Source: a virus. From it: a stretch of 64,000 bases of DNA. How positions within the stretch are numbered: the first letter of the stretch is position 1; every line of letters begins with the position of its first letter. The translations under genes were made by a program, and so were the position numbers. Under the pieces are notes generated by a model. It was not told the DNA's origin. It worked only from the letters and a program-made list of their open reading frames with translations, and ran no database searches. Below, one piece after another: positions 47,687 to 50,578 of this stretch. The stretch covers positions 798 through 64,797 of IMG/VR virus record IMGVR_UViG_643348564_000003; one strand, given 5' to 3'.

Positions 47687-48780
47687 GACAGCACCACCGT
47701 CACGGCATCGGCCGCGCGCGTGAGCCCGGTGTAGAGCCAGCGCCGCGCGGTCTCGCGAAAGGCGCAGCTCTCGTCGAACAGCACCACGCGATTCCACTGC
47801 GAGCCCTGCGCCTTGTGCACGGTGAGCGCGTAGCCGTACGTGAACTCGTCGAAGCCTCTGCGCTGCTTCGGGCTCAGCGCCTCTTCCTGGCCGTGGAAGA
47901 ACTCGCTGCGTACCTCCACCGGGACCGGCGCGGCGTCCGGGTCGTGGTCCGGCATGACCTCAAGTTCGACGATGGCGCCGTCGTTCTGCGCGACGTCGGC
48001 GACCTCCCAGAGCCCGCCGTTGAGCAGGCCCTTGTCCTTGTTGTTGCGCAGGCAAACGAGCCGGTCGCCGATCTCCGGGCCGGCCGGGTCGCGACCGTAG
48101 AGCCGTCGCACCTTCGCGTTCAGCCCGCGCCGGGTCTGGTTGCGACCGACCAGGATCTGGTCCGCGCGGAGCACGGCGCGCTGGCCGAGCGCCGCGCGCT
48201 GGATGACGCGGCTCTCGCCGTAGGCGCCGGCGGCGAGCCGCCCGCCCTGGCGCACGCGCATCGACAGCGCGATGATCGGGTTGTCCGCGGCCTGCCGATG
48301 CACCTCGGTGAGCATGAAATCGGGGTCGCCGCCCGTGAAGTAGCCAGCGCCGTCGACGGGCGGCAGCTGCGCGGGGTCGCCGAGCACGAGCACCTTGGTG
48401 CCGAAGCTCATCAGGTCTCGGCCAAGCTCAGGACCGACCATCGAGCACTCGTCGACGATGACGAGCGCGGCCGATGCGACGGGGCTGTCCTCGTTCAGCA
48501 CGAAGGTCACGCTGCCGTCGCGCCGCGGCTTCGGCCGGTAGATCAGCGAGTGGATCGTGGTGGCGCCGGTGCAGCCCTTCGCCCGCATGACGAGCGCAGC
48601 CTTGCCGGTGAAGGCGGCGAAGAGCACATCGCCTTTGACGCCCTCGGCAAGGTGCCGGGCGAGCGTGGTCTTGCCGGTCCCGGCGTAGCCGCCGAGGTAG
48701 AACGGCGCCCGGCCCGGGCTCTTGAGCCACGCCTTGACGGCGCGCAGGGCCTGATCCTGCTGGGGCGACCACGCCGTCAT
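47683..48780 (-). CDS. RecD-like SF1B helicase
   Basis: GGYAGTGKTT, VDECSM, GDPAQLPPV, EVHRQA, TVHKAQGSQW, YTGLTRA. Confidence 0.93.
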   Translation of the reverse strand: MTAWSPQQDQALRAVKAWLKSPGRAPFYLGGYAGTGKTTLARHLAEGVKGDVLFAAFTGKAALVMRAKGCTGATTIHSLIYRPKPRRDGSVTFVLNEDSPVASAALVIVDECSMVGPELGRDLMSFGTKVLVLGDPAQLPPVDGAGYFTGGDPDFMLTEVHRQAADNPIIALSMRVRQGGRLAAGAYGESRVIQRAALGQRAVLRADQILVGRNQTRRGLNAKVRRLYGRDPAGPEIGDRLVCLRNNKDKGLLNGGLWEVADVAQNDGAIVELEVMPDHDPDAAPVPVEVRSEFFHGQEEALSPKQRRGFDEFTYGYALTVHKAQGSQWNRVVLFDESCAFRETARRWLYTGLTRAADAVTVVLS

Positions 48781-49025
48781 GCGCGTTGCCCCGTTCGCTC
48801 GTAGGCCGCCAGGATCCGCTCCCGCTGGCGCGCCGGCAGCCCTTCCAGGATCCGCAGCGCGCGGGCGCGCCGCTCCGGGATGGATGGATCGCCCAGCGCC
48901 ACAGCGGCCGGATAGGCGTCCGGCACGCCGACGAGCGCTCCGGAGAGGCGCACCGCGTCCGCCCCGCGCGTGTGGACGCCGACGAGGCCAGGACGGAAGA
49001 CGGGCAGGGAGCGGAAGCCCGCCAT
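48777..49025 (-). CDS. Small hypothetical protein
   Basis: Overlapping start/stop coupling within operon. Confidence 0.55.
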   Translation of the reverse strand: MAGFRSLPVFRPGLVGVHTRGADAVRLSGALVGVPDAYPAAVALGDPSIPERRARALRILEGLPARQRERILAAYERTGQRA

Positions 49026-49029
49026 GGTG

Positions 49030-49596
49030 TCACTCCGCGGCCTGCAGGACGGGCGCGTCGAAGCGCCCGGCCTCGTCGCCCCAGGTGGCCCAGCCGGTGC
49101 GCGACTGGCGGCTGAAGAGCTCGCAACGGTACGCCGCCGGCACGAGCCGCTCGGCGATCGCGTAGGCCTCCTCCGGCTTGCGACTGTGCTGGCGCGCGCC
49201 GCCGCGGATGATGTTCGGGATGCTGCGCCCGTCGAACACGGGACGCCCCAGCGTGCCGATCAGGAACGGCTCGGCGACGGAGCGCATGATGTATCCCGTG
49301 CCCCAGCGCTGCTTGTCCCAGGTCCCGAAGGTCCGGTACCGGAAGCCCCAGGCCGCCATGACGCGCAGCGCGACGTCGAGCTTCGGGCCGGTGGCCCACA
49401 GCCACAGCACGGCGTCGCCGCGGGCGAGCTGGCCGACGGGCAGGGCGCAGATCGCCTCATCGGACATGCACGCGTACTGCGCCATGGCCGATTTCCTCAT
49501 GCCCTTCTCGGACCAGAGGTCGTAGGACCAGGGTGGATCTACCATCAGCATGCTGTAAGACAGCGGACGGAGATCTCCGAAAGGCCAGTCAAACAT
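49030..49596 (-). CDS. MT-A70 family N6-adenine methyltransferase
   Basis: VDPPW catalytic motif, LWLWAT, WGFRY, HSRKPEE, ELFSR. Confidence 0.92.
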   Translation of the reverse strand: MFDWPFGDLRPLSYSMLMVDPPWSYDLWSEKGMRKSAMAQYACMSDEAICALPVGQLARGDAVLWLWATGPKLDVALRVMAAWGFRYRTFGTWDKQRWGTGYIMRSVAEPFLIGTLGRPVFDGRSIPNIIRGGARQHSRKPEEAYAIAERLVPAAYRCELFSRQSRTGWATWGDEAGRFDAPVLQAAE

Positions 49597-50095
49597 TCTG
49601 GCCTCCCATTCGCTTGAGCGCATCCGCGAAAGGCAAGCCCGTAATAGGCACGATGCGACTGCGCTTGAACTTACCGGCGAATGCATGGCCAGGCGGCATA
49701 AGCTGACAGCACTGGCCAACTTCGCGCAGCGGCAGATAAGCGACGGCTTGAATGTCTAGAGCAACTAGCGCGACTAAATCGCAATGCTCCTCACTGAGAC
49801 GCCGTCCACGAGCAAGCTTTCCTCGTTTCCTCACATGGAACGTATAACCGATGCGCTCTGCACGCCCTCGAGCGTTCATGTTCGATGGAAAGCAGGTCGC
49901 CTTGACCTGCACTCTGATAAGGCGGACCTCAACATCGACGACGATGTCGTAGGAAAGCCCCTGATCGCTGAGATAACACCTGTAGCCGGACAAGATCAGG
50001 TCGGCACAAACCAGATGCTCAGCCGCCTTGCCGATGTCGAGCGCGTTGGCGCCACCCTTAGCGAGCCGCCGCAGAACGTCGTGGTCAACGTTCAT
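49589..50095 (-). CDS. PD-(D/E)XK endonuclease, homing-endonuclease-like
   Basis: GKAAEHLV...YDIVVD...IRVQVKA motif; lower GC than flanks. Confidence 0.85.
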   Translation of the reverse strand: MNVDHDVLRRLAKGGANALDIGKAAEHLVCADLILSGYRCYLSDQGLSYDIVVDVEVRLIRVQVKATCFPSNMNARGRAERIGYTFHVRKRGKLARGRRLSEEHCDLVALVALDIQAVAYLPLREVGQCCQLMPPGHAFAGKFKRSRIVPITGLPFADALKRMGGQNV

Positions 50096-50156
50096 GACGA
50101 CCCCCCATGATCAGCCCGAACGACAGAGGCGGCAGCGGGTCGAAGGGCCAGGTCAT
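50085..50156 (-). pseudogene. Stranded original 5' end of the MT-A70 gene
   Basis: MTWPFDPLPPLSFGLIM parallels the new start MFDWPFGDLRPLSYSMLM; ATG overlaps the upstream stop. Confidence 0.8.
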
Positions 50157-50578
50157 CGGCACCCCATCAGGGTCTTGATCCGCTCGAAGGCGCGCGGCGG
50201 ATCGCCGGGCACGCCGTCGTTGAAGGGCTCGAGCCCGTTCCGCTCGCGCATCAGGGCGATGCGGCGTCCGATCAGGCTGAGGAGATCGTGGCGGGCGTCG
50301 GCGTCCATCTCCTGGATCCACGCCGCGGCCTCGACGCGCGCGATCAGGGCTGGCCCGTCGGCGAGGCCCATCCGGCGCATGAACCGATCAAGGTCGCGGA
50401 TCTCCTCGCCGTGAGGACCGGCGAGCAGCGCCTCGAGCTTCTGCCGCTTCCAGGCGCGGTAGAGCTTCGAGAGCTGCTCGTCCTCGCGCAGCCGAATCTC
50501 GGCCTCCAGCCCCGAGAGGCGCATCTGCGCCGGGCCGCGGCTGCGGCGGCTCTCGGAATGGGACTGGAGCGCCGCCAC
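50153..50578 (-). CDS. Hypothetical protein
   Basis: Coupled ORF in operon; host-like codon usage. Confidence 0.65.
   Translation of the reverse strand: MAALQSHSESRRSRGPAQMRLSGLEAEIRLREDEQLSKLYRAWKRQKLEALLAGPHGEEIRDLDRFMRRMGLADGPALIARVEAAAWIQEMDADARHDLLSLIGRRIALMRERNGLEPFNDGVPGDPPRAFERIKTLMGCR

Follow-up and report, generated by a model that had tools for sequence, protein, structure and literature searches.

A prophage MT-A70 methylase gene in the 64,000-nucleotide stretch of viral DNA analysed here (the window) is interrupted by a cassette, which is probably a free-standing, intron-less homing element of the I-Ssp6803I family that carries a replacement gene terminus. The insertion polymorphism, the boundaries of the cassette, the family and fold of its nuclease and the recurrence of the architecture in other loci are all observed, in agreement with the original prediction of an invading endonuclease cassette that rebuilds the 5′ end of the methylase gene.

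The coordinates of the locus are collected in Table 1. As predicted, the upstream prophage gene is coupled to the old methylase start by an ATGA overlap, its TGA lying at 50153 and the methylase ATG at 50156, and the old start breaks off just before the codons for the catalytic DPPW motif. The product of the upstream gene had no match in Pfam, PHROG or NCBIfam, and none of the three proteins of the locus was matched by NCBIfam. The mini-ORF that begins at the old start enters the cassette out of frame, and its TGA ends 8 nt past the nuclease ATG. The layout and the stop position are the same in a related locus, L008, and appear well suited to termination-reinitiation coupling. The predicted second methylase start, fused to the MT-A70 body and equipped with a GGAGG of its own, is likewise present: the rebuilt ORF begins MFDWPFGDLRPLSYSMLMVDPPW and reads GTA GAT CCA CCC TGG at 49542..49528. 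The GGGAGG 5 nt upstream of the new ATG probably serves as ribosome-binding site of the rebuilt methylase; a GGAGG is kept at the same place in L008. The cassette takes the place of 12 nt of the uninterrupted alleles, GCC GAC CCG CCG (GCCGACCCGCCG), resulting in a net gain of 563 nt.

Table 1. Features of the interrupted MT-A70 locus in the window and the corresponding uninterrupted site.
Feature	Position	Strand	Remarks
3′ part of upstream prophage gene	50153..50560	-	start not fixed; conserved in L003 and L004, where it precedes the uninterrupted alleles
Relic of resident MT-A70 5′ end	50106..50156	-	17 codons, MTWPFDPLPPLSFGLIM
Relic mini-ORF	50156..50085	-	23 codons + stop; MTWPFDPLPPLSFGLIM followed by GGRHER and stop
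Inserted cassette	50105..49531	-	575 nt; from DNA alignment with the uninterrupted alleles L003 and L004
Cassette content			10-nt leader GGGGGTCGTC, nuclease gene, new MT-A70 5′ end up to and including CCC of DPPW
PD-(D/E)XK nuclease gene	49589..50095	-	168 aa + stop; I-Ssp6803I family
GGGAGG, putative ribosome-binding site of rebuilt methylase	49602..49607	-	within last nuclease codons
Replacement MT-A70 5′ end	49531..49596	-	22 codons, MFDWPFGDLRPLSYSMLMVDPP; ATG overlaps nuclease stop (ATGTTTGA)
Rebuilt site in window allele			AGCATGCTGATGGTAGATCCACCCTGGTCC
Resident MT-A70 body, TGG of DPPW to stop	49030..49530	-	in frame with new 5′ end
Full rebuilt MT-A70 ORF	49596..49030	-	188 aa; PF05063, E 1.2e-23, whole profile covered
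Uninterrupted site in L003 and L004			around TTCGGGCTGATCATGGCCGACCCGCCGTGGTCC

Cassette-free alleles, which had been expected in related prophages, exist in the same genome. Two sister prophages, L003 and L004, contain an uninterrupted methylase reading MTWPFDPLPPLSFGLIMADPPW, and DNA alignment of the window with either of them shows one 563-nt gap between flanks that are about 93-95% identical. The 17 amino acids encoded by the relic are those with which the uninterrupted alleles begin, the DNA showing five synonymous and no non-synonymous differences to each, and the full rebuilt ORF is 91% identical to these paralogues at the amino acid level. Similarity between the old and the new start is above chance (local score 51, z about 6, a score reached by none of 300 shuffles), and the inserted start has diverged from the relic, only 9 of 15 residues being identical in the aligned core. 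The claim that the nuclease gene is of lower GC content is borne out as well. Across 49450..50050, GC drops from about 0.72 to 0.51-0.60 (0.58 for the insert), and GC3 is 0.63 in the nuclease gene and 0.59 in the new 5′ end versus 0.94 in the old start and 0.96 in the methylase body. Because of this foreign composition and the host-type GCC GAC CCG CCG of the uninterrupted alleles, a precise loss from an ancestral cassette-bearing gene is unlikely. By eye, a TGATCA pseudo-palindrome is seen at the uninterrupted site.

The distribution of the nuclease is patchy. At high similarity it occurs in one of 401 genomes of the order, the order sample yielding only two chance-level matches, and its own genome holds no other copy. 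Nor was it found upstream of the methylase in any of the 28 other methylase-bearing genomes of the family, whose methylase N-termini were collected by a phmmer-based pass. The cassette is foreign in composition, too (GC3 about 0.6 versus 0.95). Both uninterrupted alleles persist beside the nuclease in one chromosome, so that the enzyme is either silent in the lysogen, unable to cut these alleles or inactive. RNA depth at the locus is 0-5, possibly a sign of silence of the nuclease in the lysogen.

I-Ssp6803I (PDB 2OST), the PD-(D/E)XK homing endonuclease of the group I intron in the Synechocystis tRNA-fMet gene, is the nearest relative of the nuclease in both sequence and fold, in line with the predicted family. 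The protein scores 25.5 bits against Pfam PDDEXK_5 (PF11645), 0.6 below the curated cutoff of 26.1, and most of its homologues, which number in the hundreds and are named 'group I intron-associated' by NCBI, carry a precomputed PF11645 label. A profile built from 38 homologues matched a single PDB entry, 2OST (E 0.0056). With the AF2 model (pLDDT 89.8, pTM 0.87) as Foldseek query, the four chains of 2OST occupied ranks 1-4 (E 1.7e-7 to 3.2e-5, 130-168 aligned columns, TM 0.59/0.66), followed by Hjc resolvases as next fold neighbours. E26, D50, Q63 and K65 are invariant in the 38 homologues and are putative catalytic residues, their roles presumably being those seen in the I-Ssp6803I structure; the YD...VQVK segment aligns with the same segment of 2OST. 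PADLOC returned a weak match to its homing-endonuclease model and none to its restriction-enzyme models. Comparison with the nucleases of L008 and L205 gave dN values of 0.13-0.14 at saturated dS, and dN/dS between L008 and L205 was 0.07; judged from these coding sequences, the nuclease is under purifying selection. As dS is saturated, the nucleases of the window, L008 and L205 are old relatives and the actual donor is unsampled.

The architecture recurs. In 20 of 29 non-redundant loci in which the nuclease is followed by an MT-A70 gene, the nuclease is directly preceded by a significant relic of the methylase N-terminus, i.e. one whose score was reached by at most one in 300 shuffles, and two further relic loci were found (L207 and L208). 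Most of the 20 relics end no more than two codons from the D of DPPW; some share the reading frame of the nuclease, others do not. Overall, however, junctions vary, some falling inside DPPW and others as far as about 17 codons before it, indicating that the cut site is not sharply defined. The tree requires at least seven changes in the state of the relic across the starred branches. As to the question whether this nuclease clade always carries an MT-A70 5′ duplicate, it often does; the remaining nine of the 29 loci have none and resemble ordinary free-standing genes upstream of a methylase. Given these loci, the duplicate is probably not an obligatory element of the design but a by-product that arises when repair lacks upstream homology. 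Among cultured phages, there was one distant match, in Klebsiella phage KO-TP1, where the nuclease overlaps an MT-A70 gene and no clear relic is present.

A distant low-GC clade is an independent replicate of the terminus-rebuilding design. Here, the relic KKYQIIYAD is broken between GCTGAC and C and is followed by TTGACA-N17-TAnnnT, a ribosome-binding site, the nuclease and a new KKYxIILADPPW start. The TTGACA-N17-TAnnnT element is promoter-like, and the left end of this cassette may thus carry a promoter of its own. Nuclease-free relatives of the clade mostly show the relic-type sequence IIYADP[PA]W. Nearer to the window, the new 5′ end (23 residues through W) is 74-83% identical among the window, L008 and L205, similar to the nuclease (81-83%), whereas the methylase bodies share only 57-63%. 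The new 5′ end seems to co-segregate with the nuclease, consistent with co-conversion. All sampled nuclease clades adjoin genes for DNA methyltransferases, either MT-A70, ParB-fused or plain PF01555 or, once, also PF00145. Mirror-image 3′ duplicates were detected in L023, L170 and L179, loci in which a PF01555 methylase precedes the nuclease. A 3′ duplicate is not the rule in PF01555-linked clades, only 3 of 24 cases being significant.

These observations can be accommodated in a model in which the enzyme attacks methylase alleles that lack the nuclease gene and cuts them at or beside the DPPW-coding dodecamer, a site of cleavage suggested by the positions at which the relics end. The broken right end would pair with donor DNA at DPPW or beyond it, and copying would proceed leftward through the methylase 5′ end and the nuclease gene of the donor. 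If the upstream DNA of the recipient is not homologous to that of the donor, the left end would be joined illegitimately and the 5′ codons of the recipient would stay behind as the relic. The product would have the order found here, i.e. relic 5′ end, nuclease, donor-type 5′ end and resident methylase body. Both this repair route and the immunity of the rebuilt allele are inferred. The methylase would stay functional because the cassette brings a start codon, a ribosome-binding site and 22 replacement codons. In the occupied allele the DPPW site is split by the cassette, and the target would no longer exist, its two halves being set apart and the new left half differing in sequence. Once formed, the arrangement could home into related alleles with the relic as left homology arm. 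Break repair in the absence of upstream homology would also shuffle methylase 5′ ends between phages.

It had further been proposed that recoding of the DPPW site makes the rebuilt allele resistant. The atypical codons GTA GAT CCA CCC TGG are present as described, but the closest relatives read GTT GAC CCG CCG (L008) and ATT GAT CCG CCG (L205). Since these relatives retain GAC or GAT CCG CCG, the recoding argument is weak and recoded DPPW codons are discarded as a general determinant of immunity; the odd codons fit the overall foreign composition of the cassette. A conserved change is found in the codons just 5′ of DPPW, from Ala to Val or Ile here and from Tyr to Leu in the low-GC clade. A single clade-wide immunity residue was also rejected. 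The residue before D is V or I in the window, L008, L205, L017 and L013 and A, C or S in other nuclease-linked alleles, and with such variation there is no universal signature.

A wider reading, which we regard as rather unlikely, is that the sampled I-Ssp6803I-like branch as a whole forms a guild of homing elements for which DNA-methyltransferase genes of phages are the specific niche. Such elements would occupy MT-A70 genes at the DPPW codons and PF01555 genes at their ends, each member carrying a replacement terminus. The association with methylases may then be a functional one and no accident: the rebuilt methylase could act as an immunity factor by methylating the element's own target or other copies. 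If true, this would constitute a hybrid of a homing element and a restriction-modification unit.

A restriction-modification-like or addiction pair, in which the adjacent methyltransferase blocks cutting by the nuclease and the terminal duplicates are insertion scars, is an unlikely explanation. PD-(D/E)XK is the commonest fold of restriction enzymes. The constant company of a methyltransferase in all sampled clades would be expected of such a pair, as would two genes that overlap and look translationally coupled, and mobile restriction-modification units with long target duplications are on record (PMC2853133). However, the methylase is an orphan in the two sister prophages and in 28 nuclease-free genomes of the family, and the inserted unit comprises only the nuclease and a piece of a methylase, placed within the methylase reading frame. 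Moreover, relics of unrelated clades end at the same catalytic-motif codons, which a model of mere neighbouring genes does not predict. The closest relative of solved structure acts in homing and has a 23-bp site (PMC3384342), and the restriction-enzyme models of PADLOC were not matched.

A passive mosaic is likewise considered improbable. An ordinary phage nuclease, e.g. a junction-resolving or anti-competitor enzyme, would normally lie upstream of MT-A70 genes, and the duplicate would have arisen by illegitimate recombination between two phages at the DPPW codons as their sole conserved stretch, with neither cutting at this site nor self-spread. Relic-free, free-standing arrangements as in L011, L013, L017, L046, L050, L054, L205 and KO-TP1 are compatible with such a history, and so is the position of Hjc resolvases next to I-Ssp6803I in the fold search. 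In addition, diverged MT-A70 genes have no better-conserved DNA than the DPPW dodecamer, and recombination joints would therefore cluster there anyway. Against this stand relics in at least 20 non-redundant loci and at least seven state changes on the tree, too many for chance recombination. The relic always directly precedes the nuclease, the position it should have if both the break and the copied tract are tied to this gene, and the mirror-image duplicates at PF01555 methylases and the patchy, foreign nuclease likewise speak against a passive origin.

A group I intron or another splicing element with an intron-encoded endonuclease, in which splicing joins the relic to VDPPW, can practically be dismissed: although the family name and the prototype I-Ssp6803I are intron-borne and a fusion of LIM to VDPPW would restore a protein of normal length, only 10 of the 575 nt of the cassette are non-coding, an intron would have no use for a second full start with ribosome-binding site, ATG and 18 homologous codons, an Rfam scan of 48800..50400 at E up to 1 returned two chance-level matches and none below E = 0.5, and three RNA-seq runs contained no spliced reads, joints or indels, at a depth of only 0-5 that is too shallow to decide the matter. 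In all likelihood the element is intron-less, as had been proposed. An intein was also rejected, as the relic frame stops after 6 codons and nuclease and methylase are separate ORFs in different frames.

Compared with known systems, the proposed homing element with replacement terminus resembles Type II restriction-modification pairs in that a PD-(D/E)XK nuclease gene adjoins and overlaps an adenine methyltransferase gene. In contrast to such pairs, the methylase often occurs as an orphan, the nuclease sits within the methylase frame with duplicated termini and its kin is a homing enzyme. For genome annotation this means that nuclease-methylase pairs of this kind are easily mis-called as restriction-modification systems, and that the relics appear as short ORFs or as N-terminal extensions of the nuclease.

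I-Ssp6803I itself is similar in size (about 150 aa versus 168 aa here). Beyond the profile and fold matches given above, the D...QxK segment aligns, and the Glu upstream of it is invariant in the family of the window. The two proteins differ in that identity is only about 20%, there is no intron and no ribozyme here, and the target is a protein-coding methylase gene instead of a tRNA gene. With hundreds of I-Ssp6803I-like homologues whose likely targets can be read from relic junctions, the evolution of long-site specificity in this fold becomes accessible.

Free-standing homing endonucleases of phages include SegF and SegG of T4, MobE and F-CphI of cyanophage S-PM2 (PMC2988022, PMC2790892, PMC6083498). 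They share with the element described here a location beside or between phage genes, a patchy occurrence among related phages and the presumed mode of spread, i.e. cutting of the neighbour's nuclease-free allele, inheritance by break repair and co-conversion of the flanks. These enzymes are of the GIY-YIG, HNH or EndoVII-like type and not PD-(D/E)XK. They occupy intergenic positions or divide a gene so that two polypeptides result, as known from nrdA and mobE of Aeh1, and supply no replacement gene end. Many copies of the present element, unlike those, lie within the reading frame itself and are accompanied by a duplicated 5′ relic.

The closest known analogue is the mobile endonuclease ORF (mORF) of fungal mitochondria, which duplicates the 3′ end of its host gene. 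mORFs form hybrid genes with atp6 of Allomyces macrogynus, atp6, atp9, cox2 and nad3 of Glomus sp., atp9 of Rhizopus and cox2 of Mortierella (PMC3630166). In both cases a free-standing endonuclease ORF resides within a protein-coding gene without an intron, and a diverged, foreign copy of the gene terminus travels along, so that the gene remains complete. The native terminus, pushed aside, persists as a relic that matches the allele of close relatives, the inserted copy being the divergent one. Several differences are obvious. The phage element replaces the 5′ end, with mirror 3′ cases at PF01555 methylases in the same nuclease family, and it occupies a bacteriophage or prophage gene rather than a mitochondrial one. 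Its nuclease is PD-(D/E)XK, whereas the usual endonucleases of mitochondria are of the GIY-YIG and LAGLIDADG families (PMC7487136), and expression of the cassette would rely on bacterial translational coupling or, in the low-GC clade, on a putative promoter of its own. In the literature searched, the solution of a spare gene end was found for fungal mitochondria and not for bacteria, phages or the PD-(D/E)XK homing family. If our interpretation is correct, this solution represents, besides introns and inteins, a third way for a homing endonuclease to live within a coding sequence that is essential or useful and yet leave the host gene intact.

Our analysis supports the original prediction that an intron-less homing element entered a prophage MT-A70 methyltransferase gene and rebuilt its 5′ end, with the exception of the recoding proposed for the catalytic DPPW motif. 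The feature is real: open reading frames, overlaps, ribosome-binding site, GC drop and homologous starts were all found as described. An old methylase start of 17 codons (the relic) precedes the nuclease gene, whose stop overlaps the start of the MT-A70 frame (ATGTTTGA). This frame begins with the new N-terminus MFDWPFGDLRPLSYSMLMVDPPW and has GGGAGG 5 nt upstream of its ATG. GC content is down from ~0.72 to 0.51-0.60 in the nuclease gene and the new start, with GC3 values of 0.63 and 0.59, respectively, as against 0.94 in the old start and 0.96 in the methylase body. Homology between old and new start exceeds chance (z ~6; score reached in 0 of 300 shuffles).

Features of the interrupted locus (minus strand throughout), loci with the low-GC cassette, and methylases beside the nuclease; L-numbers denote retrieved nuclease loci
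Feature	Position	Strand	Description
Upstream prophage gene	end 50153	minus	TGA overlaps ATG at 50156 (ATGA)
Relic mini-ORF	ATG at 50156	minus	23 codons, MTWPFDPLPPLSFGLIM-GGRHER*
Nuclease ORF	start 50095	minus	168 aa; Pfam PDDEXK_5 (PF11645), 25.5 bits, cutoff 26.1
MT-A70 ORF	49596..49030	minus	188 aa; PF05063, E 1.2e-23
Low-GC cassette	L089, L194, L196, L197, L199, L201, L202, L137
MT-A70			neighbour of nuclease
ParB-fused PF01555 (N6_N4) methylase	L023:3004-3204, L170, L179, L018, L034, L144, L148		directly upstream of nuclease
Plain PF01555	L081, L186, L125		downstream of nuclease, directly adjoining
PF00145 C5 methylase	L021:2889-3950		downstream of nuclease, one case

The sole PDB match of a 38-homologue profile was I-Ssp6803I (2OST), across the YD...VQVK catalytic segment. 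Likewise, Foldseek with the AF2 model of the nuclease (pLDDT 89.8) placed four 2OST chains on top (E 1.7e-7, TM 0.59/0.66), followed by Hjc resolvases and SPARDA nucleases. Residues E26, D50, Q63 and K65 are invariant among the 38 homologues. Low dN (0.13-0.14) with saturated dS against the closest relatives and a dN/dS of 0.07 between L008 from Methylobacterium oxalidis and L205, the closest relic-free locus (83% amino acid identity), indicate purifying selection on the gene. The nuclease matched two PHROGs of unknown function and, weakly, a homing-endonuclease model of PADLOC, but none of its restriction-enzyme models. The main rival explanation, a restriction-modification-like dependence between nuclease and methylase, could account for the DNA methyltransferase genes that constantly adjoin the wider nuclease family in the sampled loci. 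However, methylases are common as orphans, the nuclease lies inside the methylase frame with duplicated termini, mirror-image 3′ duplicates occur at three PF01555-linked loci, and the nearest characterised relative, I-Ssp6803I, is a homing enzyme with a long site (PMC3384342). Conceivably, the element is a hybrid whose cutting activity is modulated by methylation. The neighbours include DPPY-type N6_N4 and one C5-cytosine methylase, so that the methyltransferase link spans at least three families. In three of 24 non-redundant PF01555-linked loci (L023, L170, L179), which belong to other clades of the nuclease family, a diverged second methylase C-terminus follows the nuclease.

Homing into a methylase gene presupposes cassette-free alleles in related prophages, and two are present in the same genome (8.8 Mb, 8 contigs), which contains two more copies of the prophage module. 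Their MT-A70 proteins are 91-92% identical to that of the window and read unbroken MTWPFDPLPPLSFGLIMADPPWSY. Three-way DNA alignment revealed one 563-nt gap with flanks ~93-95% identical: an insert of 575 nt (50105..49531) stands in place of the 12 nt GCC GAC CCG CCG, and from the TGG of DPPW on the window allele is of the resident type again. Against either uninterrupted allele, the relic shows five synonymous changes and no non-synonymous one. As the three alleles are about equally diverged pairwise (dS ~0.3), the relic would have been a working gene start for most of the divergence time, and the comparison suggests a fairly recent insertion. Precise loss of an ancestral cassette from the uninterrupted alleles is unlikely, because their codons opposite GTA GAT CCA CCC of the cassette are of host type and because the insert is foreign in composition. 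The replication module copies lie on C1 at 2.572 Mb (window), 3.933 Mb (L003) and 5.153 Mb (L004), share ~91-96% protein identity and the order VRR-NUC-like gene, unknown gene, MT-A70, small gene, RecD/PIF1-like helicase; one of the three has the nuclease.

The intron-less reading held and an intron or intein was rejected, as an Rfam scan of 48800..50400 returned no intron or other RNA family, the non-coding part of the cassette comprises 10 nt only, and three RNA-seq runs labelled as the same species gave no joints or indels over the cassette at a depth of just 0-5, weak evidence consistent with absence of splicing. In RNA run X14, four reads had a 53-nt loose end (CCCCTCTACGTGGTGCGCCTCGACCCCGAG...) before window position 48771, where the helicase and small genes meet; this may reflect a differing RNA strain or reads from a paralogous prophage.

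The design recurs elsewhere. In kin the nuclease is rare, found in one of 401 genomes of the order, and a large protein collection contains 471 homologues. In M. oxalidis (82% amino acid identity), Sinorhizobium meliloti and Bradyrhizobium, its gene lies directly upstream of MT-A70 and overlaps it. L008 has the architecture of the window. Its relic, MTWPFDPLPPLGFDLIM-EDCRER*, shares the stop position, and after it come a homologous leader of 10 nt, the nuclease, GGAGG and a new start, MSEWPFGDLTPLSYDVLMVDPPW. The gene upstream is unrelated and the methylase body just 61% identical. MT-A70 adjoins the nuclease in 50 of 197 loci retrieved from genome, viral and metagenome collections, and 29 non-redundant nuclease-then-MT-A70 loci had sufficient upstream sequence for a relic test. 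The expectation that this nuclease always comes with an MT-A70 5′ duplicate held in 20 of them, where a significant methylase N-terminal relic lies directly upstream of the nuclease core and mostly ends no more than two codons from the DPPW aspartate; it failed in nine, which lack a relic and have the appearance of plain free-standing genes. In L205, the cassette-type start MLNWPFGDLIPLSYDVLMIDPPW is the methylase's own. Some relics are fused in frame and give the nuclease its start (L016, L047-49, L051, L052, L126, L134, L207, L208); others, including that of the window, are out of frame. Relic-bearing and relic-free loci are interleaved in the nuclease tree, with at least seven changes forced by well-supported branches.

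A decayed copy at L045 (2450-2584) joins a methylase relic (GRFATILAD) to just ~18 nuclease residues (QAIELGKAAEHLVCADLI) and a stop; downstream lies a primase-like ORF and no methylase. It seems to represent degeneration in the life cycle of a homing element. In Bradyrhizobium sp. Ai1a-2 (L013/L015/L053), the adjacent MT-A70 reads VDVDPPTHF, with DPPT replacing the catalytic DPPW, and the nuclease has a Cys/His-rich C-terminal extension of ~55 aa, present also in L017 and L051. The sole cultured phage with a relative in the phage collection is Klebsiella phage KO-TP1 (L290; PQ571297.1, 23116-24281; 30% identity). The annotation of its nuclease is PDDEXK_5 domain protein. There is an overlap with an MT-A70-type 'DNA methyltransferase' gene, and a second methyltransferase comes after it; no clear relic was seen at this locus.

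A distant low-GC clade repeats the design independently, with its own version of the cassette. Its relic, ...KKYQIIYAD, breaks at GCTGAC/C, and directly after GCTGAC come a promoter-like element (TTGACA-N17-TAnnnT) and AGGAGG, then the nuclease and a new start (MKKYxIILAD) that leads into the resident PPW. The low-GC cassette thus seems to have its own promoter, whereas the window copy seems to depend on translational coupling. Among 53 nuclease-free relatives of the low-GC methylase, most carry the relic-type IIYADP[PA]W and few IILADPPW. Hence the relic carries the prevalent nuclease-free sequence in two unrelated clades. The variant supplied by the cassette differs in the codons immediately before DPPW, with Ala changed to Val/Ile in the subclade of the window and Tyr changed to Leu in the low-GC one.

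The junction pattern fits double-strand-break repair. The break would fall between the relic end and the TGG of DPPW, within or beside the replaced 12 nt. The right end would pair with donor sequence from DPPW onward, and copying would proceed leftward through the donor 5′ end and the nuclease gene. With non-homologous upstream genes, a frequent case in mosaic phages, the left end would undergo illegitimate joining, and the start of the recipient gene would stay behind as a relic. Such repair would account for relics ending at or before DPPW, a left junction close to the nuclease start, variable junctions and relic-free copies. The occupied allele is presumably immune, since its half-sites are apart and the new left half is different. 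Immunity through recoded DPPW codons, as originally proposed, is unsupported because GTA GAT CCA CCC matches the general cassette composition and is not conserved (L008, GTT GAC CCG CCG; L205, ATT GAT CCG CCG). As two uninterrupted alleles persist in the nuclease-bearing chromosome, the nuclease would be unexpressed in the lysogen, incapable of cutting these alleles, or inactive. Expression of the window genes appears to be chained by overlaps, the relic stop ending 8 nt past the start codon (ATG) of the nuclease and the last nuclease codons holding the putative methylase ribosome-binding site.

Full-text literature searches on MT-A70 with homing endonuclease, PF11645/PDDEXK_5 and related phrases yielded no account of the relic-nuclease-new-start arrangement. 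Phage intron-less homing by Seg, Mob and F-CphI has its repair logic in common with the cassette but, unlike it, brings no replacement terminus (PMC2988022, PMC2790892, PMC6083498). The closest analogue is the mitochondrial mobile endonuclease ORF. When it enters atp6, atp9, cox2 or nad3, it brings along a foreign version of the C-terminus, which takes the place of the native C-terminus (PMC3630166). The 3′ duplicates of L023, L170 and L179 mirror the window design and resemble these mitochondrial cases.
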